The position numbers were made by a program, and so were the translations under genes. The notes under the pieces were generated by a model. That model was not told the origin of the DNA, made no database searches, and saw only the letters and a program-made list of their open reading frames with translations. A DNA stretch of 32,000 nt from positions 900,001 through 932,000 of the forward strand of contig NZ_LN885086.1 of the NCBI RefSeq assembly GCF_001458695.1, given 5' to 3'. Origin of the DNA: Candidatus Nitrospira inopinata (lineage in GTDB: Bacteria > Nitrospirota > Nitrospiria > Nitrospirales > Nitrospiraceae). Numbering within the stretch: position 1 is the stretch's first letter; every line of letters begins with the position of its first letter. Positions 16,821 to 29,955 of the stretch are shown here, one piece after another.

Positions 16821-19800
16821 CTATAGTCGAGCTGTGGCTTTCTTCACGTAGCGATGGAAGAGCCAGTCGAGAAATGTCTTGGAAAAATCGGGATCGTCGG
16901 TAATCTGTTTGTAAAACTTGAAGTTCGTGTCGATCATCTCTTGCAACTGGTCGTTGACGACATGGTCAAACGTCAGCCGAGCATTTTCCTTGGTGTTCAC
17001 TTCAACAGCCTTGGCTAAGGCTTCGTTTCTAGACAACTTAGCTTCAAGCTGTTCGATAAAGACCCTGTCCTTCTCGGTAAAATCCGTTCCGAATCGCTCG
17101 TTCAGTTCCCGAATGATCTGCGAAAGGGCCTCGACCTCGTCAACCGGCGGCATCTCGACATCTTTCGTTTTGATCGGCTCAAGCTCGCTCGCTCCACGCC
17201 TGAGCCTGATGCGGCCGCTGCCGGTCTGTTGAACTCGATACGACTCCACATCGATCTGTTGCTGGATTTCGACCGGGAGCCGCTCTCGTGTCACCGGCAG
17301 CTTGCGGAGGAGCAATCGGCCGAAGACATACAGTTTTTCCAAGTCCGCATCGGCAAACGAGATGATCTGGGAGAGAAAGGCATACAGACTGACGAAATCC
17401 TTCAGATGGCCGTGAAACGGCACCCGGTCATCCTCGCGTGCGGCCAGATACCGATCGACGGCCGGTTGCAGAGCGGCGTGCAACCGGTCCTGCGTTCCTT
17501 TCGGATCGAAATAGACCGACGCAAACCGGTTGACCTCATCGGTCGTGTAAAAGTGAACGTCCGCTAACTTCGTCTGCAGATCGTACAAGAGGTTCGGGTC
17601 GGTGCCTTCCTTCAAGAGCGTCCGATCGTAATAGGGTTCGAACGCCTTCTGGATGTCATCGGCTTCGTTGACGAAGTCCAGCACGAACGTCTCTTCCTTC
17701 CCGGGGGCCACCCGATTCAGCCGGGAGAGCGTCTGCACGGCGTTAACGCCGCTGAGTTTCTTATCCACGTACATCGTGTGCAGCAACGGTTGGTCGAAGC
17801 CGGTCTGGAACTTGTACGCCACGATCAGGATTCTGTACTCGTCGCGCTTGAACGTTTCAGCCGTCTGGGACTCAGGGAAGCCGTTCATGTTCGCTTCGGT
17901 GTAGTCGGCGCCGCCGTCACGAACCGTACCTGAGAACGCCACGAGCGCCTTGAAGCCGTAGCCCTTCTCTTTAAGATACCGATCCACGGCCTGCTTGTAG
18001 CGCACGGCGTGCAGCCGCGAGCGCGTGACGATCATCGCCTTGGCCTTGCCGCCAATCCGGTGGATGACTTGGCCGGCGCAATGGTCCACCATGATCGCGA
18101 CCTTCTTCTCGATCGCGTGCGGGTGGAGATCCACGAACGACTTCAGCAGGTAGGTCGCCTTGTGCCGATCGTAGCGGGGATCTTCCGAGATCGTCTTGAG
18201 GAGGTTCCAATAGGTTTTGTAGGTGGTGTAATTTTGGAGGACATCCAGGATAAAGCCTTCCTCGATGGCCTGCCGCATGGTGTAGAGGCTGAAGGGCGCA
18301 TACCGTCCATCCGGCTGTCGGGAGCCGAACAGTTCGAGCGTCTTCGGTTTCGGCGTCGCCGTAAAGGCAAAGTAACTGACATTCGGCAGTTGGCCGCGCT
18401 TCTTCACCTCCCCAATGATCCGGTCTTCCAGATCCTCCCCTTCCTCGCGGTCTTCCTCCTCGGCCAGTTCGAGGCTCCCCGCGGCAAGCACCTGCTTGAG
18501 ACTCTTGGTGCTCTCTCCTGTCTGGGAAGAGTGGGCTTCGTCGATGATCACCGCGAACCGCTTGCCGGGAAGGGCGCCGATTTCGTTGGCGATCACCGGG
18601 AATTTCTGGAGCGTCGTGACGATGATCGTCTTGCCATCTTCCAACGCCTGTTTGAGCTGCCGCGAAGTCGAATCGATGTTTTCGACCACCCCGACCGTCT
18701 GCTCGAATTGCCGGACGGTTCGCTGAAGCTGGCGGTCGAGCACGCGTCGGTCCGTGATGACGATGATGGAATCGAAGACCCGACGATCCGATGCGTCATG
18801 AAGAATGCTGAGCTGGTGCGCCAGCCAAGCGATCGAATTGCTCTTGCCGCTGCCGGCGCTGTGCTGGATCAGATACCGATGGCCGGGGCCCGAATCTTTC
18901 GCTTCCCGCACCAGATTGCGAACCGCATCAAGCTGATGATAGCGCGGGAAGATCAGCGACCGTTCGCCCGTCTTGCGCCCCTTCTCATCTTCCCCCTCAA
19001 CAACCTGCACAAAGTGCTGGATCAGGTTCAGGACGCTATCCCGAGTCCAGATTCGCGCCCACAGGTAGGAGGTGGCAAAGCCGTTCGCCACAGGGGGATT
19101 CCCTGCTCCGCCATACCGACCTTGATTGAACGGCAGGAATCGCGTCCTGACCCCCTGCAAATGGGTGGCCACATACACCAGGTCCGGATCAACGGCGAAA
19201 TGCGCGAGGCACCGGCCGAAGGCGAACAGGGGCTCCTTGGGATCGCGGGTGCGCTGATACTGCCGGATCGCGTCCTGGACGTTTTGCCCGGTGAGCGGAT
19301 TCTTCAATTCGGCGGTGAAGATCGGCAGGCCGTTCAGGAACAGGACCACATCGAGGCTCTTGTCGTTTCTTTCGCTGTATTTGAGCTGGCGAACGACGGC
19401 AAAGAGATTGGCTTCGTACAGCTTCTTGACCTCTTCATTGAGCCCGCTCGACGGACGGAAATAGGCCAGGCGGAACGAGCAGCCGTCCGATTTGATGCCC
19501 TTCCGCAATACCTCCAGCGTCCCGCGTGTCTTGACCTCGGAGGCCAGCCGCCTCAGCAGTCGGTCCCTGGCCTCGGCGCCGTGCTGCTTCGTGAACTTCT
19601 CCCATTCCTTCGGCTGGGTGGCATAGATGAAATGAAGGACGCCTTCAGGAATCAAGCACAGCGCGCGGTCATACTCCTCGGGCGCGATCCGGCGATAGCC
19701 GCCCGGCGCATTCTCGTACCACGCGCCGGGAAGGCCGGCGTACCCTTCCCCGCCTGTCGCGGCCGGTCCCGTACCTTCGAGTAACACGCGCTCGATGGCG

Positions 19801-19832
19801 GCCTCGAAGTTCTTCTCGGAGATGTCCACCAT
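16821..19832 (-). CDS. hsdR: Type I restriction endonuclease, R subunit (HsdR)
   Basis: About 1003 aa. N-terminal PD-(D/E)xK nuclease region (DVVLFLNGLPIFTAELKNPLTGQ). SF2 helicase motifs are present: HSAGSGKSNSIAWLA (Walker A), AVIIDEAHSSQTG (DEAH), FAFTATP, and ..QTLSRLNR. ATG 19832 overlaps (TGATG) the stop of the reconstructed abiEii frame and has GGGAAGG upstream. The ORF track's 19883 start is also possible. Confidence 0.9.
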   Translation of the reverse strand: MVDISEKNFEAAIERVLLEGTGPAATGGEGYAGLPGAWYENAPGGYRRIAPEEYDRALCLIPEGVLHFIYATQPKEWEKFTKQHGAEARDRLLRRLASEVKTRGTLEVLRKGIKSDGCSFRLAYFRPSSGLNEEVKKLYEANLFAVVRQLKYSERNDKSLDVVLFLNGLPIFTAELKNPLTGQNVQDAIRQYQRTRDPKEPLFAFGRCLAHFAVDPDLVYVATHLQGVRTRFLPFNQGRYGGAGNPPVANGFATSYLWARIWTRDSVLNLIQHFVQVVEGEDEKGRKTGERSLIFPRYHQLDAVRNLVREAKDSGPGHRYLIQHSAGSGKSNSIAWLAHQLSILHDASDRRVFDSIIVITDRRVLDRQLQRTVRQFEQTVGVVENIDSTSRQLKQALEDGKTIIVTTLQKFPVIANEIGALPGKRFAVIIDEAHSSQTGESTKSLKQVLAAGSLELAEEEDREEGEDLEDRIIGEVKKRGQLPNVSYFAFTATPKPKTLELFGSRQPDGRYAPFSLYTMRQAIEEGFILDVLQNYTTYKTYWNLLKTISEDPRYDRHKATYLLKSFVDLHPHAIEKKVAIMVDHCAGQVIHRIGGKAKAMIVTRSRLHAVRYKQAVDRYLKEKGYGFKALVAFSGTVRDGGADYTEANMNGFPESQTAETFKRDEYRILIVAYKFQTGFDQPLLHTMYVDKKLSGVNAVQTLSRLNRVAPGKEETFVLDFVNEADDIQKAFEPYYDRTLLKEGTDPNLLYDLQTKLADVHFYTTDEVNRFASVYFDPKGTQDRLHAALQPAVDRYLAAREDDRVPFHGHLKDFVSLYAFLSQIISFADADLEKLYVFGRLLLRKLPVTRERLPVEIQQQIDVESYRVQQTGSGRIRLRRGASELEPIKTKDVEMPPVDEVEALSQIIRELNERFGTDFTEKDRVFIEQLEAKLSRNEALAKAVEVNTKENARLTFDHVVNDQLQEMIDTNFKFYKQITDDPDFSKTFLDWLFHRYVKKATARL

Positions 19833-20009
19833 CAGGCCGACCTTCCCTTCTTGTTCGGCCGCCACGGCCCACCGGCCGGCCACGGGCGCTCGAACGATTC
19901 ATGTGTTGCCGCAGCAATGGTCGGGGGCATGAGAAAGTCCTGCAAGAAACCGATCACGTCCTTCAATGAGACACCTTGGAGACACCTTGCAAGTCCAAGC
20001 CAGCCCGCT

Positions 20010-20783
20010 TCAGGAAGCCCTTCCATTGTGCCTGCTTGTCCTTATTGCCCCAAAATCTTCTGTGAGGCACACGGGAGAAACGGTCGGCAGCGGCATCCGG
20101 CGGCGCTCAAAGGAGCCACGGATAGCTTGAGTAAGATCAGCCCCATCAAACCCGAACTGCCGGGTCAGGGACCAGAGATCGAAGAAATCCTTCGTGCGGC
20201 TATTCGCAATTCCAAGTTCGACCATGGACTGAAACTTCTCCGCGATCACGGTCTCGCGCGGATACGCCAACAGACGAGGCGCTGGAAAATCGAGGAGGGT
20301 GGGATACGTCAAAAAGACGGGCTTTGGCAGGACGACATCGCCAAACCCGATATCCACTTGGATCGGAATGCGGGCCACTCCCAGCCTTGCCTCGAAAGAC
20401 AAGCGAACACCTTGATATTCTTCCCCGTCGCGAATCTCCTCCCCGGTGATGGAGTCGGCAAGGAACTTGAGCCCATCATCCTCGACGGGCGTCCGACAGA
20501 TTTCCTGGAACTCTTTGACGAGCGCAGCAACGTCGTTGGAGCCTTTCCTGAGCAGGTTGAGATCGCGCGTCGCCCGCTGCGGCGTGCCGCTCCACACGGA
20601 GAACACCATCGCGCCCTTCAACACGAACCGCTCGCGCGCAGCCGAACGGCTCAACCGGTACCGCAGGCGTTCCAGCGCATAATAAATGAGCGTCAGTGGA
20701 AAGTCCTCGCCGCGCTCGCGCGAGCGGTTCAGCAAACACTGGCGTACCGAGGCCGCGACATCCTTGACCGATTTCCGAGTCAC
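20010..20783 (-). CDS. abiEii: AbiEii/AbiGii-family nucleotidyltransferase toxin (type IV TA), C-terminally truncated by frame disruptions
   Basis: 257 aa with the DUF1814-type N-terminus (SVRQCLLNRSRERGEDFPLTLIYYALERLRYRLS..RFVLKGAMVF..ATRDLNLL). ATGA overlap with abiEi. The conserved C-terminal segment continues in two other frames down to 19832 (see findings). Confidence 0.8.
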   Translation of the reverse strand: MTRKSVKDVAASVRQCLLNRSRERGEDFPLTLIYYALERLRYRLSRSAARERFVLKGAMVFSVWSGTPQRATRDLNLLRKGSNDVAALVKEFQEICRTPVEDDGLKFLADSITGEEIRDGEEYQGVRLSFEARLGVARIPIQVDIGFGDVVLPKPVFLTYPTLLDFPAPRLLAYPRETVIAEKFQSMVELGIANSRTKDFFDLWSLTRQFGFDGADLTQAIRGSFERRRMPLPTVSPVCLTEDFGAIRTSRHNGRAS

Positions 20784-21394
20784 GCCGTGGCCTCCAGATA
20801 CGGACGCATCACGGCGGTCACCCGGCAGATCTTGGCATAGCGCCAGAGCTCATCCATCCCGCCGCGGTGCTTGCGCCGGTAGTCCCGCAGCGCCTCCAGA
20901 GCCACATCCAGTCCGATCTTGTTCCGGAACTTGAAACAATCGGCCACGGTTTTGGCCTGGCTGAATACCCGGACAGGCACGTTTTCGATGTTGTGCTGCT
21001 CGACGCCCGACTTCAGCGTCGTCCCCGACATGCGGACGATCCGAAGGGGCGGATGCGCCTTCTTCGGAGCGCGGCTTTTTTGATCAATGGCCAGCCAGAT
21101 TTCAAAGGGAGCCTGAGTCGTCAGACCGTGAAAACGCAGAGCGGACAGCAGGCAGACCACGCCCTGCGGTATGCGTTTGCAGGCCTGCGCGAGATGATGA
21201 TGCTCGGTTTGATCGCCTTCGGGGAGCACGTACAGGCCGCGCGAGAATTGCTGGAGCAGGCCGCGCTGATACAGCCGCCTGAGATAAACCGGCGGAATCC
21301 CCCGGTGGGTGAGATCGCGCGTCCGGATCACCTTCAGTTGCCGCGCGATGTCGAGAACCTGCTGCGTTTTTGATTTATTCGACTTAGTCGCCAC
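20780..21394 (-). CDS. abiEi: AbiEi-family antitoxin / transcriptional autoregulator (type IV TA)
   Basis: 204 aa, GTG start. N-terminal winged-helix AbiEi_4-like region (VIRTRDLTHRGIPPVYLRRLYQRGLLQQFSRGLYVLPEG) followed by GVVCLLSALRFHGLTTQ. It sits immediately upstream of, and overlaps, the AbiEii toxin gene. Confidence 0.8.
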   Translation of the reverse strand: MATKSNKSKTQQVLDIARQLKVIRTRDLTHRGIPPVYLRRLYQRGLLQQFSRGLYVLPEGDQTEHHHLAQACKRIPQGVVCLLSALRFHGLTTQAPFEIWLAIDQKSRAPKKAHPPLRIVRMSGTTLKSGVEQHNIENVPVRVFSQAKTVADCFKFRNKIGLDVALEALRDYRRKHRGGMDELWRYAKICRVTAVMRPYLEATA

Positions 21395-21404
21395 TGTTAT
21401 AAAT

Positions 21405-21432
21405 CGTCGGCATTTGTCGATAAGTGCCGACG
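21405..21432. promoter_or_regulatory. Inverted repeat CGTCGGCA-N12-TGCCGACG upstream of abiEi (candidate AbiEi operator)
   Basis: The 8-bp perfect arms lie at 21405-21412 and 21425-21432, 11-38 nt upstream of the abiEi GTG. A TATAAC -10-like hexamer (minus strand, 21396-21401) is adjacent. Confidence 0.4.
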
Positions 21433-21698
21433 TTTTGTAACAGCGTCACGAGGGGAGGTCAAGGATTTTCGTGGCTTGGGGGGAGGGCCGATTATAGGGT
21501 TGGGGCAATTCAGAGAAGGATGCGCGGATTGGATAAAAACACCATCACTTTTCGACAAGTGCAAGCATTTTTATCCAGTTGGCGGCGGTTCCGTCATCAG
21601 CATGATGGTGGTGCTGCTGACGATGATCATCAGTATCCTGGGCAAGTTAACGAAACTGGAGCGTGGTCACCGTGATGATGACGATCATCGTCGGACGG

Positions 21699-21785
21699 CT
21701 TTCCTCACTTCGTCACCCCGGCGCAGGCCGGGGGCCAGTCTTCGTTACTCTGGATTCCGGCTTCCGCCGGAATGACGAATGGCGG
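21699..21785. repeat. GC-rich REP/MITE-like double-hairpin element, copy 1
   Basis: 87 nt. By my hand alignment 79/87 positions are identical to 24172-24258, in the same orientation. It contains the hairpins CCCCGGC-gcag-GCCGGGG and ATTCCGGC-ttcc-GCCGGAAT. Confidence 0.85.
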
Positions 21786-21935
21786 CTCACGCCGGCATCA
21801 CCCACTCCTCCCGCACTTCAATCTTCTCCGTCTCGGAGGCGGACCTGCCTGCCAATAGGCAGGGATGAGAGCGATGCGGTACTTTTCTAGCGTGGTGCAG
21901 CCTACCGAGAGCCTTGGCTACCGGCGTGCCGACGC
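21786..21935 (-). pseudogene. Relic 3' end of a second hsdS gene
   Basis: The minus strand reads ..LEKYRIALI, then a 20-nt hairpin-containing interruption (CCTGCC-aata-GGCAGG at 21848-21863), then SASETEKIEVRE in another frame. Compare the intact HsdS C-terminus LKEYRTALISAAVTGKIDVRE. DNA identity to 24259-24340 is about 70% by eye. An in-frame stop lies just upstream, so there is no TRD. Confidence 0.6.
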
Positions 21936-21961
21936 ACTGTCTTCTCGTCGGAAAACAAACC

Positions 21962-22462
21962 TTACCGAAACCTGACGCCCAGCCTTCTCAGCATCTCGAA
22001 CGTATCCACAAAAGGCACATCAAACGCCTGACACACATTTGGAATTGGGACCTTTCTCTTAATCGAGGGGTTCCAAACTTCCTCGGTGACGACGACACAG
22101 CCCTTGGCCTTCGCGTAGGCCACCAGCCAGCCATCGGCGCCACTGGCGAAATCGGCCTTGGCCGCATCGGAAAACTGGCTCTGCGCCCGGACCCAAGCCA
22201 TGACCTCACCGTAAGCCCGAATGACATCGTCCTTATCCGTCGAGACGAACGCATCATTAAAATTGCTCTTCGCCCAAGCCGCTAGCTTGTCCTTTCCTCG
22301 CCCCAACTCCTGCTTCACACGATCAATACTTCGAAGGTGACCGTTCGCTGCCTGTTGCTCTAGGCTATCCCAGAACCCAGGAACCACATCGAAGGAATAG
22401 TATCGGCGCGCAGCCTGAATAAAGACGTTCGCGTCAAGCACATACGTCGGCCCATTCGTCAC
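21962..22462 (-). CDS. PIN-like nuclease domain protein (DUF4411-like)
   Basis: 166 aa, GTG start overlapping the upstream stop (GTGA). The pattern is YVLDANVFIQAARRYYSFDVVPGFWDSL..SIDRVKQEL..GADGWLVAYAKAKGCVVVTEEV..KVPIPNVCQAFDVPFVDTFEMLRRLG. I recognise this as the DUF4411 / PIN-like layout, with acidic residues in PIN positions. Confidence 0.7.
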   Translation of the reverse strand: MTNGPTYVLDANVFIQAARRYYSFDVVPGFWDSLEQQAANGHLRSIDRVKQELGRGKDKLAAWAKSNFNDAFVSTDKDDVIRAYGEVMAWVRAQSQFSDAAKADFASGADGWLVAYAKAKGCVVVTEEVWNPSIKRKVPIPNVCQAFDVPFVDTFEMLRRLGVRFR

Positions 22463-23613
22463 CGCGGTTCACCAGAGCCAAGCAAGCCGATGTATCGGTC
22501 GAAGGCTCTCCCGTAAAGCCCCGTCAGCCGATACGCTTCGGAGTACAAAAGTTGGCCTTCTTTTACCGCTTGGGCAACGGCGCGGGCAAATTGCCGACCG
22601 ACACGACCGTTTTGGGTCGCGTAGAAGTCTCCACCTTCCGGCCGCCTCGCAGCGTTACGACGTTCATCCTCCTGATAAACCTCGTAGAACTGTAGAAACT
22701 CCGCGCGTTGAATGAGTGCGAGGTCAAGTGCCCGGCGTGCGATAACGAGGACACTGACTTTAAAGTGCCGAGCAAGCCATTGAAACGGCTCATTCTCCCT
22801 TCTCGCCGATGCCCAGACTTCGCGCAACTCGCGCTCAGGAACCAAGCACTCTGCCGCGACCAGATTGCATGCCTGCTCCGTCGGGTCATCTGCAGGCCGA
22901 AGTTCTCGCAAATCGAAGGCGGCGCTGCTACCGAACCACACGTGCGCTAACTCATGCGCGAGCGTGAACATCTGGGCTGCCTTACTATCCGCTCCATTGA
23001 CAAAGACCAGCGGAGCAAAATCGTCAACCAGAACGAAACCGCGAAACTCCTGGGGATCGAGTTTGCGATGCGTGTTGTTCCCCACGATGCCATTGACGAC
23101 GACCAGAATGCCGACGGCTTCCATCGCATCGCGCAGCGCCTGCAAGGCGTCCGTCCAGGTTGGTCGCTGAGCAGCCCAACCCGTTTCAAACCGGAGTGTA
23201 CGCCGGATGCGATCCGCAACCACTTGGGGCGACTCGTTCCGCCTTGCCGACCCGACAAATGGCAAGCGGTCCTGGCCTTGATCGATCAGGAACTCGCGCA
23301 TCCAGGCCTGACGTTGCTGCATTGTCTGGACGGTGTGAAGGAGTTCAGGGCTGGGCCGACTCGGCGTGCCGCCATCGAGCGTCCGGAAGTGAGGGATGGG
23401 TAACCGCTCTTCGGGCGGCGCCGGAAGGAAGAAGAATCCCAGCGGGGTGAGCGTGGCTTTAGCCAGAGATTCGAGCTGGTGCAGCGTGGGTTGGCTTTCG
23501 CCCGATTCCCACTGCTGGATTTTGGGAAACCTCCGACGGAGGACACCAGCCGGCAGGCCAGAGCGATCGACTGCCCAGCGCAAAACGTCCCGGCTAACGG
23601 CGACTCTGCTCAT
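22459..23613 (-). CDS. Xre-type HTH domain fused to an ImmA/IrrE (COG2856, M78) zinc metallopeptidase domain
   Basis: 384 aa from ATG 23613 (GAGAGGTGG upstream). The ORF track's 417-aa start is less likely. The N-terminal HTH region is IQQWESGESQPTLHQLESLAKATLTPLGFFF. The HExxH Zn site is in FTLAHELAHVWFGSSA. Confidence 0.8.
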   Translation of the reverse strand: MSRVAVSRDVLRWAVDRSGLPAGVLRRRFPKIQQWESGESQPTLHQLESLAKATLTPLGFFFLPAPPEERLPIPHFRTLDGGTPSRPSPELLHTVQTMQQRQAWMREFLIDQGQDRLPFVGSARRNESPQVVADRIRRTLRFETGWAAQRPTWTDALQALRDAMEAVGILVVVNGIVGNNTHRKLDPQEFRGFVLVDDFAPLVFVNGADSKAAQMFTLAHELAHVWFGSSAAFDLRELRPADDPTEQACNLVAAECLVPERELREVWASARRENEPFQWLARHFKVSVLVIARRALDLALIQRAEFLQFYEVYQEDERRNAARRPEGGDFYATQNGRVGRQFARAVAQAVKEGQLLYSEAYRLTGLYGRAFDRYIGLLGSGEPR

Positions 23614-23726
23614 AAAGCTTCGCCACCTCTCTATCAGGATCTCTTTGCCTGGCTGCTGCCGGTCAAGAGTCTTTGTCCATCGATCTTCCCTGTCAAGGCC
23701 GTGATCGCACAAGGCCTATTCCTGTC

Positions 23727-23780
23727 CGTCATGCCAGGGCCTGCCCCGGACGGTGATCCGGGGAACGCGGGAATCCGGGC
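23727..23780. repeat. GC-rich REP-like hairpin element (different sub-type)
   Basis: Hairpin CCCCGGA-cggtga-TCCGGGG (23744-23763), followed by GAACGCGGGAATCCGGG. On the minus strand it translates to the IPAFPG-type pseudo-peptide typical of such repeats. It lies immediately 3' of the GIY-YIG gene. Confidence 0.5.
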
Positions 23781-23782
23781 TC

Positions 23783-24070
23783 CTACAAAAGGGACTCGTA
23801 CAAATCCTGCCACTCGGGATTGAGCTTCTCGATCAGCGCGAGTTTCCATCGCCGCTTCCATTCTTTGATCGCCTTTTCACGCCTGATCGCCGACTCCATG
23901 GACTCGTGGGGCTCGTACCAGACAAGCCTGTGGACTTGATACCGCTTCGTAAAGCCCTCCACGAGGTCTTGCTTGTGTTCCCAGACCCGTTTGACTAAAT
24001 CGGAGGTGACCCCAACATACAAGGTCCCGTTCCGGCGACTGGTGAGTATGTACACGCACGGTTGTTTCAT
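23783..24070 (-). CDS. Small stand-alone GIY-YIG nuclease family protein (COG2827/UPF0213-like)
   Basis: 95 aa: VYILTSRRNGTLYVGVTSDLVKRVWEHK..GFTKRY..LVWYE..AIRREKAIKEWKR. This includes the GIY...YVG motifs, the conserved Arg and the Glu of the GIY-YIG fold. Confidence 0.85.
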   Translation of the reverse strand: MKQPCVYILTSRRNGTLYVGVTSDLVKRVWEHKQDLVEGFTKRYQVHRLVWYEPHESMESAIRREKAIKEWKRRWKLALIEKLNPEWQDLYESLL

Positions 24071-24171
24071 GGACCATCGTCGCCCCGTCTCAATCGTCAG
24101 TATCTCGACGGCCCCTGGGATCTATGCCGCGCTTCACTTTTTCCCCCACGACACCTCACCAGAGTTCAGCC

Positions 24172-24258
24172 CTTTCCCCTCTCCGTCACCCCGGTGCAGG
24201 CCGGGGGCCGGTCTTCGTTACTCTGGATTCCGGCTTCCGCCAGAATGACGACTGACGG
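24172..24258. repeat. GC-rich REP/MITE-like double-hairpin element, copy 2
   Basis: 87 nt, direct repeat of 21699-21785 (79/87 identical by hand alignment). It overlaps the last ~13 codons and the stop codon of hsdS. Confidence 0.85.
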
Positions 24259-25576
24259 CCGATGCCGATGCAACGCATTCCTCCCGGACGTCAATCTTCC
24301 CCGTCACTGCGGCGGAGATGAGGGCGGTGCGGTATTCCTTGAGCTTCTCGATTCCTTCGCGGACCTTGGCGATCAGGGCATCGAGCTTGGCGGTTTCGCG
24401 GCCCAACAATTCCGCGATGGCTTGCTGTTCTTTGGTACTTGGAATCGGGGTCATAATCTCAAAAAATTCTTCGGGATAAAGGCGCAGGCGAGATTTCCAA
24501 ACTCCCTTCGAAAAGCGCGTGAGTTCAGACACATGAGGCGGAACCCGACACAGGTGGTCATAGTATCGTGGCAGCAATACCCCGTCTTTGAGCCGATAGA
24601 CGTTATATGAGGGGCTCACCATTCCTGGCTCGCCTGCAATGCCCAGCGCTCCCATCCAAGCCCACATCGTATTAATGACAAGATCATCACGCTCACAGAG
24701 CTTGTACCCTTCATGTGACTCAGCTTCGATCATGTATACTTCTTTTGCGGATCGCTTCGTCACTCCTGTTATGTGAGAAACAGTGAGAAGCTCTTCCTCT
24801 CCTTCGAGCGATCTACGGTCAATTTCGCGAAAGAGAACTTTGTTTCTGTTAATTTTCCAATTCGCCGGGATCTTGCCGAGCCATTCGACGCCGGAGTCTT
24901 TCATCGGCACGGTAGGGTCGAGGCCTTTGGTCACGGCCTGGGTGATGAGTGCGGCGCGCTTCTCCTGGAGCAACTTGATCAGCCGCTCCTTCTTGTCCAC
25001 CAGCGCATCAATCTTCTGCGTCGCTCGGTCGAGGAAGGCGGCGATGGCGCGTTGCTCGTCCACTTTTGGTATCCAGACAACCAGTCTTCCTAATTGACTT
25101 GGATTAATCGCCGGATAGCCAACGCCTTCTGAATACGCTTGCACAGCCTGAACGAATTGTTCTGATTGCACGATTCGCCAAAGGAAGGGCGGATGGAGCC
25201 CAGAGTGAGGCCGCAAGACTGCAAATCCAGTAGAAACAATCAGGTTGTCTGGCGGATCATTGAGATAGGCGATGGCTTTCAGGTAGGTACGAACAGTGGA
25301 GATGATGGTGTCCCCTGACCGTACTTTGCGGCGGGCGCGGCTTGGCGCGTTCTCAAATCGGAGTTCCTCTGTGCCAAGAACATTGCCAGTTGAATCGACA
25401 TTGCTGATGTCAACATATCGAAGCTCATAGTCAGGACTGGTTTCCTCATTAAGTGTTTCTGAATTCATACCGCAACAGTATTTCAGCGGTCTGACCTCCC
25501 AATGCGTCGGAATTTCTCCCAGCCACTCCACGCCGGAGTCCTTGTAGGCCGGATAGGGTTTGAAGCGGCACGGCAT
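24218..25576 (-). CDS. hsdS: Type I restriction-modification specificity subunit (HsdS), two target-recognition domains
   Basis: There is an internal duplication. KDSGVEWLGEIPTHWEV.. and KDSGVEWLGKIPANWKI.. each begin a TRD. The central conserved helix is IDALVDKKERLIKLLQEKRAALITQAVTKGLDP and the distal one is LDALIAKVREGIEKLKEYRTALISAAVTGKIDVRE. I prefer ATG 25576, which does not overlap darG; the ORF track starts at 25705. Confidence 0.9.
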   Translation of the reverse strand: MPCRFKPYPAYKDSGVEWLGEIPTHWEVRPLKYCCGMNSETLNEETSPDYELRYVDISNVDSTGNVLGTEELRFENAPSRARRKVRSGDTIISTVRTYLKAIAYLNDPPDNLIVSTGFAVLRPHSGLHPPFLWRIVQSEQFVQAVQAYSEGVGYPAINPSQLGRLVVWIPKVDEQRAIAAFLDRATQKIDALVDKKERLIKLLQEKRAALITQAVTKGLDPTVPMKDSGVEWLGKIPANWKINRNKVLFREIDRRSLEGEEELLTVSHITGVTKRSAKEVYMIEAESHEGYKLCERDDLVINTMWAWMGALGIAGEPGMVSPSYNVYRLKDGVLLPRYYDHLCRVPPHVSELTRFSKGVWKSRLRLYPEEFFEIMTPIPSTKEQQAIAELLGRETAKLDALIAKVREGIEKLKEYRTALISAAVTGKIDVREECVASASAVSRHSGGSRNPE

Positions 25577-25605
25577 TGCCGCGGTCTCGGCTCCACGCAA
25601 GCGCG

Positions 25606-26658
25606 TTACTGGGCTGGTTGTTCCGCAATCCATCCCTTCTCCCGAAGCACCTTGGCAGCGAGGTGGATCTGCCCAGGCGAGAACCGACGCTTGCGGTCGG
25701 CCCATCCATAGAAATGTTCGAGCAGCCCGTCCTCGGACGCCGGGTGCTCGCGCGTTACAATCCAGTGGACTGTCGCAAGGAGCTCGAGGCCGAACGGCGA
25801 TTCAAACCCTTCGACCAGCCCGGCAACCCGCTCGAAGCGTTTCAGAGTCTGCGGTCGTTCTTCCAGCGTGCGCCGTGCGTCGTCTACTGCGCCGGGGACA
25901 ATTTCAAGAACCTTATCGGGCGCATCGCCGCCGGAGCCGTAGCCGGAGATGTAGTAACCGTCAATTTCACTCAATACGTGCCGCATGTTCTCAGCGTACG
26001 GTCCGTAAGGCCCCTTCGCGAAACGAAGTCGCAAGGATTCGCCCGCCTCCTGCATGAAATACATAAGCTTGTGAACTTCTAGCAGGGACACGAACGGATC
26101 CAGTAGACCTGCGAGGTAACGCTCCATGAGTCCTAACAGTGCGGCGCGTCCAGGAGTCATCTTCGGTGCCTTACCCTTTCTCATACTTCTGGGTAGAACC
26201 GGTGTGCCGGCTGGTTCGAACACAACAGCACGAACGTTGGAAAGTTCAGACATGGACCGCTCAATGAGGGTACGCACCTTTGCCCAGTCGAGCCCTCCTA
26301 AACCTGCCCCGAGCGGTGGCAGCGCGACGGAGCGAATGTTTCGTTGCCAAATCTCCCTCACCAGTGCTTTGAGCCCAGCCTCGACGTCCTCAATGCGTGC
26401 TTTGCCACGCCAGTGCCGCTTGGTGGGGAAGTTGATGATGTAGCGCGGATTCGCCAACCGGCCGGTTTCGAAGACGAACATGCGTCCGGGCTGTACCTCC
26501 CTCCTGCGGCAGGCGGCGGCATAGGCCTTGAAGTTCTCGGGCCATGCCTTCTTGAATTGCAACGCGATACCTCGCCCCATGAATCCGACGCAGTTCACCG
26601 TGTTCACGAGGGCTTCGGTGTCCTCTTCGAGGATGTTCCCTTTCTTGTACTCGATCAT
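25606..26658 (-). CDS. darG: DarG-type antitoxin: N-terminal macrodomain plus C-terminal DarT-binding domain
   Basis: 350 aa. The macrodomain is GNILEEDTEALVNTVNCVGFMGRGIALQFKKAWPENF..INFPTKRHWRGKARIEDV..VALPPLGAGLGGLDW. AGGAGG lies 7 nt upstream of the ATG. It sits directly downstream of darT. Confidence 0.85.
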   Translation of the reverse strand: MIEYKKGNILEEDTEALVNTVNCVGFMGRGIALQFKKAWPENFKAYAAACRRREVQPGRMFVFETGRLANPRYIINFPTKRHWRGKARIEDVEAGLKALVREIWQRNIRSVALPPLGAGLGGLDWAKVRTLIERSMSELSNVRAVVFEPAGTPVLPRSMRKGKAPKMTPGRAALLGLMERYLAGLLDPFVSLLEVHKLMYFMQEAGESLRLRFAKGPYGPYAENMRHVLSEIDGYYISGYGSGGDAPDKVLEIVPGAVDDARRTLEERPQTLKRFERVAGLVEGFESPFGLELLATVHWIVTREHPASEDGLLEHFYGWADRKRRFSPGQIHLAAKVLREKGWIAEQPAQ

Positions 26659-26674
26659 CGTCGCCCCTCCTGCT

Positions 26675-27325
26675 CTAAAAGTACCATTCGGGACGAACCT
26701 CTACACTTGGCGGAGGATTCAAGCCCGCGAGCGCTGTAGTTGCGCGCAAATGGATGGCAGCCGATCGAACGCCGACACGCTCGACAAGCGTAAATGGGAA
26801 TTTCTCGTACAGCAGGAACTCGGCCTGCTTCCGCTCCTTGATATCAGAGTCTCGGAAATCCCGAGATGCTATTGCGTTCCAGTCGAGATCGCCCAGATTC
26901 CCTACGGTTGCGTAGAACTCGGTGTAGTAGGCGCCAGCGTTGGAGAGCGAGAATGCCCATCGCACGCCATTGGTATCTGCCCACTGAACGACGGTGTGCA
27001 GATCCGCTTCCAAGTGCACGATGGGCTCCTGCCCGCCACAGTAGATCAGCTCTAGGTGATTTGCACGATGGATCACGTATAGCATCACCGAGCGAGGACA
27101 AAAATAGAAGGGAACGTACTCGCCAACCTTGGTCCCGGTGTGGCAATGAACCTCCAACTCCTCAAGCCGTCTGCGCTTGATCCCGGACATGCCGATCGTC
27201 TGAATAGGTCCACCGGAGGTGAGCATCGCTCTGTCCGACAGCAACCCACCGCATCTAACGATGCCGGGCAAGTTGTCCACGTGCGTAATGTGGTAGATCT
27301 TGGGGCGCGAGGGCGGTGTGCTCAT
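26675..27325 (-). CDS. darT: DarT-type (DUF4433) ssDNA ADP-ribosyltransferase toxin
   Basis: 216 aa: KIYHITHVDNLPGIVRCGGLLS..GEYVPFYFCPRSVMLY..WAFSLSNAG.., with the catalytic-Glu context KERKQAEFLLYEKFPF. Paired with a macrodomain gene. Confidence 0.85.
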   Translation of the reverse strand: MSTPPSRPKIYHITHVDNLPGIVRCGGLLSDRAMLTSGGPIQTIGMSGIKRRRLEELEVHCHTGTKVGEYVPFYFCPRSVMLYVIHRANHLELIYCGGQEPIVHLEADLHTVVQWADTNGVRWAFSLSNAGAYYTEFYATVGNLGDLDWNAIASRDFRDSDIKERKQAEFLLYEKFPFTLVERVGVRSAAIHLRATTALAGLNPPPSVEVRPEWYF

Positions 27326-27449
27326 GTTGCCATGGTCTCAAGTTACGGCCCGATCATGGGGGCAGGCCGGCGGACCGCCCGTCGGGATCATAATCTCATC
27401 GGCAGGTATATCCAAGTGCTCCCCTGCTCCGATCCCCCAAGGTCATCGC

Positions 27450-29504
27450 TTACGCTCCCGCGCACCCGCCACCGGTCAATTCGCCAAGTATGTGCACAAT
27501 GTCCTGCTCAATGGAGCGGATGTCCGCCTCGATGTCCTCCAACGGTCGAGGCGGCTGGTACGTATAGAAATACCGGTTGAAGTTGATCTCGTAGCCGACC
27601 TTGCCGACTTGGCCATCCTTGTGGTCCACGACGGCACGGTTGATCCAGGCATCCTGGACGTGCGGCTTCACTTCCCGGTCAAAGTAGGCCTGAATGTCTT
27701 CTTTGAGCGGCACGTTCTCGGTATCACGCAGTTCGGGGTCCGGCTCCGGGTTGCCGTCCTCATCCCGGCAAATCTCGGCGGTCTCGTCCCGTTCGGACAG
27801 GGCGTTCAGAATCGCTTCGCGCAGCGACTTGGAGAGTTTTAGGTCCACCTTTTCCTGTGCCTTGTCGAGTTCTTCGATGAACCGCGCTCGGTCTTTGAAG
27901 AGAGTAGACGGAAGGGTCTGAAGCATGGCCAGAATGGCCCCCTGTTTCTTTCGACCTTCCTCTTCCTCCTTGACCCTTTCCTTCGCATGCTTCTTTTTGC
28001 TGACCGCCAAATTCTTCAACGCCGTTTGTTCATTCAGCCTAGCAATCCGTTCAGGGCTGGCCTGGAAGTTGAGCCGCAGCGGGCACTCGACGGTGATCTT
28101 GCGGTAGCCGAAGTCGGTCGTGTTGAAGATCTTGCAGTGCTCGCCTTCCCTGAACGCCGTGAACAGGTCGGTGATCTGCTGAATCTGCTCCGCCGAGATT
28201 TCCCGCCGCTTGTCGCCGAGGCTCCGGCGCATCGGGACCCAAAAGCTGGAGGCGTTGATAAGCTGCACCTTGCCCCTGCGCTTCCTTTCTTTCCGGTTCG
28301 TGAGCACCCATACATAAGTGGCGATGCCGGTATTGTAGAAAAGCTGCTCCGGCATGGCGATGAGGGCTTCCAGCCAGTCGTTCTCCAGAATCCAGCGACG
28401 GATTTCGCTCTCGCCGCTTCCGGCGTCGCCCGTGAAGAGCGGCGAGCCGTTCATGATGATGGCCACGCGGCTGCCGCCGTCTTTCGTGTCCTTCATCCGG
28501 TTGAGCATGTGCTGGAGAAAGAGCAGTTGGCCGTCGCTGATTCGCGGGAGGCCGGCCCCGAACCGGCCGGCATGACCGCGCTCGTGTTCCGCCTCGACGG
28601 CCTCTTGGTCGCGTTTCCAGTCCTTGCCATAGGGAGGATTCGCCAGGAGGTAGTCGAACTGCTTGTCCGCGTGCTTGTCATTGGAGAGGACGCTGCCAAA
28701 GGCAATGTTCTCGGCGTCCCGGCCATCTGGGCTGGTCATCAACATATCCGCTTTGGAGACCGCCCAGGTTTCAGGATTGACTTCCTGGCCGAACAAGTAC
28801 ACGTCGGCATGTGGGTTGATTTCCAGAATCCGCTCTTTGGCGATGGTGAGCATGCCGCCCGACCCACAGCAGGGGTCGGCCACGGTGCGCACGATATGGT
28901 TCTTGGCGAGCACGTCTTTGTCCTGCGCCAGCAGCAGGTTCACCATGAGCCGGATGACTTCGCGCGGCGTGAAGTGCTCGCCGGGGTTCTCGTCGAGGGC
29001 TTCGTTGAACTTGCGGATGAGCTCTTCGAAGATGTAGCCCATCTCATGGTTGGAGACCTTGTCGGGATGCAAGTCAATCGTTTTGAACCGCTCCATGACT
29101 TGGAAGAGCAACCCAGCCTCGTCGAGCTTCTTGATCGTGTTGTCGAAATCGAACTTCTCCAAGACCTCCTTCATGTTCGGGGAGAAGCCGTTGATGTAGT
29201 TACGCAGATTGGCAGCCAGGTTCGGCGCGTCGGCCAGCAGCTTGTCGAAGTCGTAGCGTGACGTATTGTAGAAGGCGTAGCCGGAGACTTTGCACAAGCG
29301 TGGCGCCGGGTTCTCCAGCTTCTTGGCCTTGAGCTTGGCATTTTCTTCTAGAACTTTTTCTTTCGTCGGCGCCAGCACGCAGTCGATGCGCCGCAGGACC
29401 GTGAAGGGCAGGATGACGTCCTGATACTTGCCACGCTTGAACGTGTCACGGATCAAATCCGCCACGTTCCAAATGAAGCTGACTTTCTCGCCGAAGTTGT
29501 TCAT
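27450..29504 (-). CDS. hsdM: Type I restriction-modification DNA methyltransferase subunit (HsdM), N6-adenine
   Basis: 684 aa. HsdM N-terminal domain (IWNVADLIRDTFKRGKYQDVILPFTVLRRID), SAM motif I (VADPCCGSGGML), and catalytic motif IV (YLLANPPYGKDW). Confidence 0.9.
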   Translation of the reverse strand: MNNFGEKVSFIWNVADLIRDTFKRGKYQDVILPFTVLRRIDCVLAPTKEKVLEENAKLKAKKLENPAPRLCKVSGYAFYNTSRYDFDKLLADAPNLAANLRNYINGFSPNMKEVLEKFDFDNTIKKLDEAGLLFQVMERFKTIDLHPDKVSNHEMGYIFEELIRKFNEALDENPGEHFTPREVIRLMVNLLLAQDKDVLAKNHIVRTVADPCCGSGGMLTIAKERILEINPHADVYLFGQEVNPETWAVSKADMLMTSPDGRDAENIAFGSVLSNDKHADKQFDYLLANPPYGKDWKRDQEAVEAEHERGHAGRFGAGLPRISDGQLLFLQHMLNRMKDTKDGGSRVAIIMNGSPLFTGDAGSGESEIRRWILENDWLEALIAMPEQLFYNTGIATYVWVLTNRKERKRRGKVQLINASSFWVPMRRSLGDKRREISAEQIQQITDLFTAFREGEHCKIFNTTDFGYRKITVECPLRLNFQASPERIARLNEQTALKNLAVSKKKHAKERVKEEEEGRKKQGAILAMLQTLPSTLFKDRARFIEELDKAQEKVDLKLSKSLREAILNALSERDETAEICRDEDGNPEPDPELRDTENVPLKEDIQAYFDREVKPHVQDAWINRAVVDHKDGQVGKVGYEINFNRYFYTYQPPRPLEDIEADIRSIEQDIVHILGELTGGGCAGA

Positions 29505-29879: not shown

Positions 29880-29955
29880 TGGTGAGCCGGCTGGGACTCG
29901 AACCCAGGGCCCTCGCCTTAAAAGGGCGATGCTCTACCGACTGAGCTACCGGCTC
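29880..29955 (-). tRNA. tRNA-Lys (anticodon UUU)
   Basis: Minus strand: GAGCCGG-TA-GCTCAGTCGGTAGAGC-A-TCGCC-CTTTTAA-GGCGA-GGGCC-CTGGG-TTCGAGT-CCCAG-CCGGCTC-A-CCA. This folds into a full cloverleaf with the anticodon loop CTTTTAA and an encoded CCA end. Confidence 0.9.

Follow-up and report, generated by a model that had tools for sequence, protein, structure and literature searches.

A coupled ImmA/IrrE-type protease and DUF4411 PIN gene pair inside a type I restriction operon of Candidatus Nitrospira inopinata resembles the VapBC52 toxin-antitoxin system

What does a metallopeptidase gene that runs directly into a nuclease gene do in the middle of a type I restriction-modification (R-M) operon? 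The question is raised by two genes of Candidatus Nitrospira inopinata, here called A and B, which a preliminary description had presented as an uncharacterised pair; "the window" below denotes the whole 32,000-nt stretch of DNA that was analysed. Gene A has the following features.

22459-23613, minus strand: gene A, ATG start, 384 aa, a predicted VapB52-like antitoxin/sensor
Domains of gene A: Xre-type HTH (about residues 1-65), linker with FR motif, Peptidase_M78 (ImmA/IrrE) with helical sub-domain (about 90-350), helical C-terminal tail (about 352-380)
23623-23631, minus strand: Shine-Dalgarno-like GAGAGGTGG, 9 nt 5' of the gene A ATG, read from the sequence
23383-23388, minus strand: FR motif, codons F76-R77, in the HTH-peptidase linker, probable self-cleavage site
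22942-22956, minus strand: HELAH zinc/catalytic motif (H220-E221-x-x-H224), CAT GAG TTA GCG CAC
22915-22917, minus strand: F233, at the VapB52/CapP cysteine-switch position in the alignment
22876-22878, minus strand: E246, third zinc ligand by sequence conservation

Consistent with the earlier reading of gene A as an Xre-type HTH joined to an M78 peptidase, Pfam placed Peptidase_M78 at residues 182-295 (E 3.6e-16), and a sequence-based PDB search aligned residues 7-351 with VapB52 (9vzy_A, E 7e-24; 29% identity by BLASTP). The C-terminal tail (352-380) lies outside that alignment and is kept within the protein's own clade. Because no Pfam HTH model matched the N-terminus at E 0.01, its HTH status rests on alignment to the N-terminal domain of VapB52 and on the predicted fold, the N-terminal domain of the AF2 model resembling P22 c2, ImmR, DdrO and C.Csp231I. 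Among PDB entries to April 2026, the top Foldseek matches of the AF2 model were CapP (7t5t) and PprI/IrrE (8sln and 3dti). H220, E221, H224 and E246 are invariant both in 28 close homologues and in 135 diverse representatives. F76-R77 aligns with the DFRRLDG motif of VapB52 and is invariant in the same 28 homologues; in the diverse set, 121 proteins have F or Y at the first position and 131 have R at the second. The identical NCBI record, from Ca. Nitrospira inopinata, is named "ImmA/IrrE family metallo-endopeptidase", and the 384-aa length from the ATG start is common to the NCBI protein and most homologues. A consensus promoter was not found in the 170-nt spacer 5' of gene A, and a coding-strand scan of 21300-24400 for promoters and terminators showed nothing.

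The features of gene B and of its junction with gene A are these.

21962-22462, minus strand: gene B, GTG start, 166 aa, a putative DUF4411 PIN-like nuclease and VapC52-like toxin
22459-22462, minus strand: GTGA overlap, in which the gene B GTG start shares bases with the gene A TGA stop (translational coupling)
22433-22435, minus strand: D10, acidic active-site residue (this and the next three from alignment)
22307-22309, minus strand: E52, acidic active-site residue
22133-22135, minus strand: D110, acidic active-site residue
22079-22081, minus strand: E128, acidic active-site residue

The current annotation of gene B is "PIN domain protein". The DUF4411 model covers the protein over its full length (Pfam, E 5.2e-59), as the preliminary description had proposed for this 166-aa product, and the PDB search returned 9vzy_D and 9vzz_A, both entitled "DUF4411 family protein", at E 1e-9. 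Identity with VapC52 is 25%, and the best fold matches of the AF2 model (pLDDT 69) were VapC PIN toxins. D10, E52, D110 and E128 align with D6, E48, D99 and E117 of VapC52, and they are invariant or nearly so in 30 homologues. The plus strand reads TCAC at 22459-22462 (GTGA in coding sense), so that the GTG of B overlaps the TGA of A; the coupling claimed earlier is thus read directly from the sequence, with both genes on the minus strand, which had been left unstated. The peptides quoted in support of the two assignments (FTLAHELAHVWFG, YVLDANVFIQA, GADGWLVAYA, VVTEEV, IPNVC and TFEML) were all found in the sequence. Similar junctions recur in related loci: of the 69 that were scored, 23 overlap by 4 nt and 18 by 1 nt. 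The pairing itself is near-obligate across bacteria and archaea: gene A lies directly upstream of gene B in 79 of 80 related loci from many phyla. The family to which the antitoxin belongs is a large one, with 1429 clusters at 50% identity (E<=1e-30).

The description of the pair as uncharacterised did not hold. An association of COG2856-Xre fusions with PIN genes was predicted by Makarova et al. in 2009, who named Rv2515c (PMC2701414), and the pairing of HTH-DUF955 with DUF4411.1 was catalogued by Matelska et al. in 2017 (PMC5499597). A working toxin-antitoxin (TA) pair followed in 2019, when Rv2514c was found to be toxic and Rv2515c to rescue (PMC6504116), and the crystal complex of the same pair, VapBC52 (Rv2515c/Rv2514c) of Mycobacterium tuberculosis, was published together with its mechanism in 2026, with 1:2 stoichiometry (PDB 9VZY/9VZZ; PMC13273310). 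In VapBC52, ssDNA activates the M78 domain of VapB52, leading to HExxH-dependent self-cleavage at the FR motif, named as the probable cleavage site, which frees the N-terminal domain; VapC52 cleaves tRNA (PMC13273310).

A-B and VapBC52 are built alike, with the antitoxin gene first, an antitoxin made of an HTH, an M78/helical sub-domain and C-terminal helices, and a DUF4411 PIN toxin; they also share the FR linker motif, the HExxH...E signature and four PIN acidic residues. On the grounds of full-length homology, the retention of catalytic and cleavage-site residues, the near-obligate coupled pairing and mobility, we put the probability at roughly three in four that A-B is a VapBC52-type ("Rosmer-like") TA module, in which an ImmA/IrrE-protease antitoxin restrains a DUF4411 PIN toxin that is freed when A cleaves itself. 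The earlier suggestion that a protease/antitoxin senses a signal and controls a PIN nuclease agrees with these later results on the homologous pair (PMC13273310).

Read in this way, protein B would be a Mg-dependent PIN ribonuclease, most likely an anticodon- or variable-loop nuclease of tRNA like VapC52. The N-terminal HTH domain of A would bind the B dimer, with the C-terminal helices of A blocking the active site, and the HTH would probably also autoregulate the operon. Once its M78 domain was activated, for which the trigger in VapB52 is ssDNA from DNA damage or phage replication, A would cut its own FR linker; with the N-terminal domain lost, B would be freed and translation would stop, resulting in growth arrest or abortive infection. 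We infer the toxicity, neutralisation, trigger and RNA target of A-B by homology, and since identity with VapBC52 is only 29% for A and 25% for B, A-B could have another trigger and cut another RNA.

Three differences from VapBC52 bear on this comparison. The cysteine-switch Cys, which occludes the zinc site in VapB52 and CapP and serves as a fourth ligand of the metal during auto-inhibition, is replaced by Phe in protein A; a disordered N-terminal extension of about 23 residues is present in VapB52 and absent from protein A; and A-B lies inside a type I R-M operon of a nitrifier, whereas actinobacterial DUF4411.1 genes are mostly mono-cistronic (Matelska et al., PMC5499597). Position 233 is F throughout the clade of protein A, and of the 135 diverse representatives 73 have S there and 33 have F, Cys falling outside the five commonest residues. 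The cysteine switch thus looks like a feature specific to VapB52 and CapP rather than one that defines the family. With most family members lacking it, the published gating model for VapB52 may not generalise, and because the clade of protein A is among those without the switch, restraint of its protease, and possibly its trigger, may differ from VapB52.

Matches to other known systems were weaker. PADLOC 2.0.0 gave weak RmrA, CapP, PDC-M69B and PD-Lambda-2_B matches to protein A, and none of its models, RmrT included, matched protein B. The RosmerTA systems (RmrT/RmrA; the NetFlax "ImmA protease antitoxin" node D25) resemble A in joining an HTH to an ImmA/M78 protease and have interchangeable toxins, and for D25 both PIN-like partners and phage protection by several members have been noted (PMC10440598). 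Those RmrT toxins that have been characterised, the Kita phage toxin among them, are membrane-acting rather than nucleases, unlike protein B; since RmrA gave at best a weak match of 45 bits (E 1.6e-12) to A, and RmrT none to B, we rejected assignment to RosmerTA. Assignment to CapH/CapP-regulated CBASS was rejected as well, the capP model covering the M78 domain only (E 5.8e-12) and CapH and CBASS genes being absent from the window, as was PD-lambda-2, whose match at A was weak. NCBIfam yielded only the spr1629 antitoxin family, below threshold (41.7 bits against a cut-off of 335). CapP/CapH (CBASS), IrrE/PprI-DdrO and ImmA-ImmR, which are activated by DNA damage or ssDNA, share with A the M78 fold with a helical DNA-sensing sub-domain and an Xre-type HTH substrate. 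However, CapP, IrrE and ImmA cut a separate repressor to turn transcription on, whereas a VapB52-type A carries HTH and protease in one chain and would, as its output, release a toxin.

How the pair came to lie where it does can be read from its surroundings. In minus-strand order, with assignments from Pfam and PADLOC unless stated, the operon runs as follows.

27450-29504, minus strand: hsdM
26675-27325, minus strand: DarT
25606-26658, minus strand: DarG
24218-25705, minus strand: hsdS
23783-24070, minus strand: GIY-YIG gene, 95 aa, stand-alone nuclease (Pfam GIY-YIG, E 9.6e-17)
then gene A and gene B
20780-21394, minus strand: AbiEi
20010-20783, minus strand: AbiEii
16821-19883, minus strand: hsdR

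The pair therefore shares the strand of hsdS and hsdR and falls between the two, close to DarTG and AbiE, just as had been described, and this co-directional position places it among the cargo embedded in type I R-M operons. Such cargo is common ("guilt by embedding"; Payne et al.). PrrC-EcoprrI, TgvAB and other embedded systems likewise have a nuclease module, probably tRNA-acting, in the hsdS-hsdR gap and in the orientation of the hsd genes; PrrC, however, belongs to the ABC-ATPase type of anticodon nuclease, is rarely met outside R-M operons and is under the control of the R-M complex, and A-B is unrelated to it in sequence. A 64-aa ORF at 19832-20026 was considered as the missing C-terminus of AbiEii, and the search gave no match.

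Around the pair is a direct repeat.

24172-24316, minus strand: direct repeat copy 2, the intact hsdS 3' end with the same hairpin element as copy 1
21699-21843, minus strand: direct repeat copy 1, downstream of gene B, an hsdS 3'-end pseudo-fragment (ETEKIEVREEWV) followed by a GC-rich hairpin of about 95 nt

The two copies, each 145 nt long and 83% identical to one another, flank a 2473-bp unit made up of the GIY-YIG gene, A and B, and the hairpin element of copy 1 folds at -53.9 kcal/mol (z = -3.7). This bracket is the mark of an insertion, and it was by inserting between hsdS and hsdR that the A-B copy in the window entered its type I R-M operon. The island's far end carries a tRNA-Lys gene, for which no att-like repeat of at least 13 nt was found. 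Both the GIY-YIG gene and the flanking repeat were missing from the preliminary description. A tblastn search of the 80 related A-B loci found no relative of the GIY-YIG gene, which probably does not belong to the A-B pair and is selfish or hitch-hiking in its own right.

An inserted cassette of this kind also resembles a selfish element, and the pair might accordingly be mainly an addiction or stabilisation module that retains an island, a plasmid or the hsd operon, with no dedicated anti-phage role. A-B relatives occur on 48 plasmids, among which 25 are conjugative. Judged from Pfam summaries (the PADLOC summary being dominated by redundant HsdS models), most of the 80 homologous pairs have unrelated housekeeping genes around them and lie outside defence islands. 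Moreover, VapC52 protected against phage only when overexpressed alone and co-expression of VapB52 abolished the effect (PMC13273310), so that no member of the family can yet be credited with protection against phage by the intact pair. Set against this, the antitoxin differs from a labile peptide in being a large and stable protease with the features of a sensor, and this points to activation by a trigger; phage protection is known for the related RmrA-type systems (PMC10440598); and only type I R-M recurs as a neighbour, HsdS accounting for 6 of 61 upstream neighbours, far above the expectation for random positions, in counts that rest on a greedy longest-ORF heuristic for gene calls and from which 11 loci were dropped. 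We regard a pure addiction role as possible, though unlikely. The neighbourhoods also qualify the earlier proposal that such pairs accompany defence genes: it stands for type I R-M, which does recur, and fails for most pairs, which adjoin unrelated genes, so that the link to defence is weaker than had been implied.

Could the recurrence of R-M instead reflect a functional coupling? The surrounding R-M system might mask the pair in the manner of PrrC, or DNA ends or ssDNA produced by restriction or RecBCD might trigger the M78 domain, such that tRNA cleavage would back up a failed or inhibited restriction. The hsdS-A-B-hsdR arrangement is found in about 7-8 of the 80 loci, across several phyla (L003, L008, L046, L048, L058, L079, and L045 with degenerate hsd genes), and the hsdS/A and B/hsdR junctions of nested loci are often only 0-50 nt. 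Since the embedded copies do not group together as nearest relatives, these embeddings arose independently. There is also precedent, PrrC being a tRNA nuclease embedded in a type I R-M operon and TgvAB working better inside its own R-M cluster, and ssDNA is the trigger of VapB52. However, R-M genes are missing next to about 90% of the pairs, so the module works alone; in the window the GIY-YIG gene and spacers separate A-B from hsdS; and unrelated cargo is so often embedded in type I R-M operons that coupling is not implied (Payne et al.). We therefore consider coupling improbable. A related and equally speculative idea is that the clade without the cysteine switch is gated unlike VapB52 and CapP, and that repeated capture between hsdS and hsdR means layering, in which restriction-made DNA ends or ssDNA, or restriction failure, would lead to self-cleavage of A and tRNA cleavage by B, a PrrC-like back-up assembled from unrelated parts.

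Least probable of all, and by a wide distance from the preferred reading, is that protein A acts as an ImmA/IrrE/CapP-style anti-repressor that cuts a separate repressor to induce hsd, abiE and darTG, with B merely accessory: this is the mode of the founding members ImmA-ImmR, IrrE-DdrO and CapP-CapH, and CapP and IrrE are the closest folds of A among entries released to April 2026, but no separate Xre- or CapH-like repressor gene adjoins A, the HTH is fused to A itself, B accompanies A in 79 of 80 loci regardless of neighbours, and VapB52 cuts itself rather than a partner.

The VapBC52-type reading makes of A-B an ordinary new member of the VapBC52 family that lies inside a restriction operon, and it opens no new class of system. 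For Ca. Nitrospira inopinata, two vaguely named genes gain annotation as a VapBC52-type TA pair with a testable mechanism. For the family, the interest lies in the near-obligate pairing, the large antitoxin family, a cysteine switch that is mostly absent and the repeated entry into R-M operons.

Genes A and B encode a new, divergent example of VapBC52, a type of toxin-antitoxin pair that is already known and was recently characterised, with A the predicted VapB52-like antitoxin and B the predicted VapC52-like PIN toxin. Both lie on the minus strand, as does a small nuclease gene between hsdS and A that the preliminary description had passed over.

23613-22459, minus: gene A, ATG start, 384 aa
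22462-21962, minus: gene B, GTG start, 166 aa
23783-24070, minus: stand-alone GIY-YIG nuclease gene, 95 aa (Pfam E 9.6e-17)
29880-29955, minus: tRNA-Lys(UUU), 375 nt upstream of hsdM

As had been described, the two genes are translationally coupled, the TGA of A sharing bases with the GTG of B (GTGA on the coding strand, 22459-22462); an SD-like GAGAGGTGG can be read 9 nt 5' of the ATG of A. The HTH-M78 and PIN-like assignments also held: Pfam placed protein A in Peptidase_M78 (E 3.6e-16) and protein B, end to end, in DUF4411 (E 5.2e-59), while by predicted structure the N-terminal domain of A matched Xre-type HTH proteins (P22 c2, ImmR, DdrO and C.Csp231I) and the best matches of B were VapC PIN toxins. 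Database proteins identical to A and B, both from Candidatus Nitrospira inopinata, carry the names 'ImmA/IrrE family metallo-endopeptidase' and 'PIN domain protein', respectively.

Searched by sequence, the PDB returned a single family for each protein, with A matching 9vzy_A (E 7e-24, residues 7-351) and B matching 9vzy_D and 9vzz_A (E 1e-9; each bears the title 'DUF4411 family protein'). The M. tuberculosis proteins in these entries, VapB52 and VapC52 (Rv2515c/Rv2514c; NAR 2026; PMC13273310), share only 29% identity with A and 25% with B by BLASTP. The predicted structures, of moderate confidence (pLDDT 71 for A, 69 for B), agree with a VapBC52 identity, the best fold matches of A as a whole being CapP, PprI/IrrE and an M. 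tuberculosis regulator; 9VZY was not among the matches because the fold library ends at April 2026.

The earlier view of the pair as an uncharacterised module does not stand, even though its annotation was correct. The association of a COG2856-Xre fusion with PIN was predicted as a three-component TA by Makarova et al. 2009, who cited Rv2515c (PMC2701414); the HTH-DUF955 + DUF4411.1 pairing is in the catalogue of Matelska et al. 2017 (PMC5499597); TASmania validated Rv2515c/Rv2514c as a toxin-antitoxin pair in 2019 (PMC6504116); NetFlax in 2023 connected antitoxins of the ImmA-protease type with PIN toxins and with RosmerTA (PMC10440598); and the 2026 VapBC52 paper gave structure and mechanism (PMC13273310). 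It is because of this prediction, cataloguing, validation and structure that the pair is assigned to a known kind. The pair is absent from PADLOC 2.0.0, which has no model for B and gave only weak RmrA and CapP matches on A.

The antitoxin family comprises 1429 clusters (50% identity) at E<=1e-30. Scanning one genome per species gave 80 loci that encode close DUF4411 relatives, in Nitrospirota, Planctomycetota, Acidobacteriota, Bacteroidota, Bacillota, Chlorobiota, Zixibacteria, methanogenic archaea and others. A homologue of A lay directly upstream of the DUF4411 gene in 79 of the 80, the last being cut by a contig end; of the 69 junctions scored, 23 overlap by 4 nt and 18 by 1 nt. Relatives were carried by 48 plasmids, 25 of them conjugative, and by only 2 of 50,697 phage records.

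The link between homologous pairs and defence genes proved weaker than the earlier description suggested. Type I R-M families were the only recurrent neighbouring families by Pfam (first neighbours, n=123: Methylase_S 6, ResIII 6; second neighbours, n=112: ResIII 3, N6_Mtase 2, HsdM_N 2), but flanking genes were mostly unrelated, housekeeping ones. The hsdS-A-B-hsdR nesting, called by tblastn with the window's Hsd proteins and ORF maps, recurs in several phyla (related loci L003, L008, L046, L048, L058 and L079), with L045 showing the same position among degenerate hsd genes, and the junctions of nested copies are often very tight, overlapping or near-abutting. Because the embedded pairs are neither a clade nor one another's closest relatives, and the Hsd proteins of their loci are 24% to 83% identical to those of the window, we infer that capture into the hsdS-hsdR gap has been repeated and independent.

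Defence cargo inside type I R-M operons has already been described (PrrC, TgvAB and the 'guilt by embedding' of Payne et al.); the pair, with DarTG and AbiE as companions, neatly illustrates this known pattern. The window's operon is an unusually crowded case. Its minus-strand order is hsdM, darT, darG, hsdS, GIY-YIG, A, B, abiEi, abiEii, hsdR, in agreement with the hsdS, hsdR, DarTG and AbiE neighbours described earlier. It forms one co-directional unit (16821-29504, minus) into which three TA/Abi modules are nested, one (DarTG) in the hsdM-hsdS interval and two (the VapBC52-like pair and AbiEi/AbiEii) in the hsdS-hsdR interval. AbiEii (20010-20783, minus; 257 aa) covers only positions 3-249 of the 299-position PADLOC profile and may be truncated at its C-terminus; an overlapping 64-aa ORF (19832-20026) did not match AbiEii. 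In the region 25576-25705 (minus), the hsdS ORF as listed shares 100 nt with darG, but its profile matches begin only at residue 47, the true start probably being M44, at about 25576. The 16.8-29.5 kb island adjoins the tRNA-Lys(UUU) gene; no att-like direct repeat of at least 13 nt was found at its far end, nor was an integrase seen.

Two direct copies of a 145-nt repeat (21699-21843 and 24172-24316, 83% identical) flank a 2473-bp unit that carries GIY-YIG, A and B, an arrangement resembling a scar left by insertion or recombination. In each copy the last ~24 hsdS codons lead into a GC-rich, REP-like hairpin element of ~95 nt, found in the window only in these two copies; the live hsdS frame extends through the element to a stop at 24218. 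Downstream of B, the hsdS fragment in the repeat copy (21699-21843) is dead, reading ETEKIEVREEWV versus VTGKIDVREECV in the live gene. On the simplest reading, the cassette would have recombined into the hsdS-hsdR gap via homology to the hsdS 3' end, entering upstream of an AbiE module already in place. The GIY-YIG gene is probably not part of the A-B pair, since tblastn gave no match to it across the 80 related loci; it may represent a small selfish element tied to the hairpin repeats.

In B, D10, E52, D110 and E128 are invariant or nearly so among 30 homologues and align with D6, E48, D99 and E117 of VapC52, mutation of which abolishes activity. In homologue alignments of A, H220, E221, H224 and E246 are invariant, as is F76-R77, which lies in the linker that follows the HTH domain; the VapBC52 authors locate this FR motif at the active site of the protease and regard it as the probable point of self-cleavage (PMC13273310). 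By homology, B would be a PIN ribonuclease, probably tRNA-specific, whose activity A would block by way of its HTH domain and C-terminal helices; a signal (ssDNA in VapB52) would lead the M78 domain to cleave A at the FR linker, freeing B. The sequences themselves establish the homology, the conserved residues, the pairing of the genes and their translational coupling; the toxicity of B, its neutralisation by A, the trigger and the target RNA are putative, by analogy with VapBC52. In that study phage protection was seen only when VapC52 was overexpressed alone and not when VapB52 was co-expressed (PMC13273310), and protection by an intact pair has been reported for no member of the VapBC52-type family.

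In auto-inhibited VapB52 and CapP the zinc is ligated by a Cys, whereas A has Phe at the aligned position (F233; window 22915-22917). Among 135 diverse family representatives of A compared at this position (37-54% identity, drawn from P0241-P0390), Ser occurs in 73 and Phe in 33, with Cys outside the five commonest residues. Given this prevalence of Ser and Phe, the published cysteine-switch model probably fails for most of the family and is unlikely to apply to the window's member, and, because the switch is missing, the gating step in the clade of A may differ from that of VapB52.
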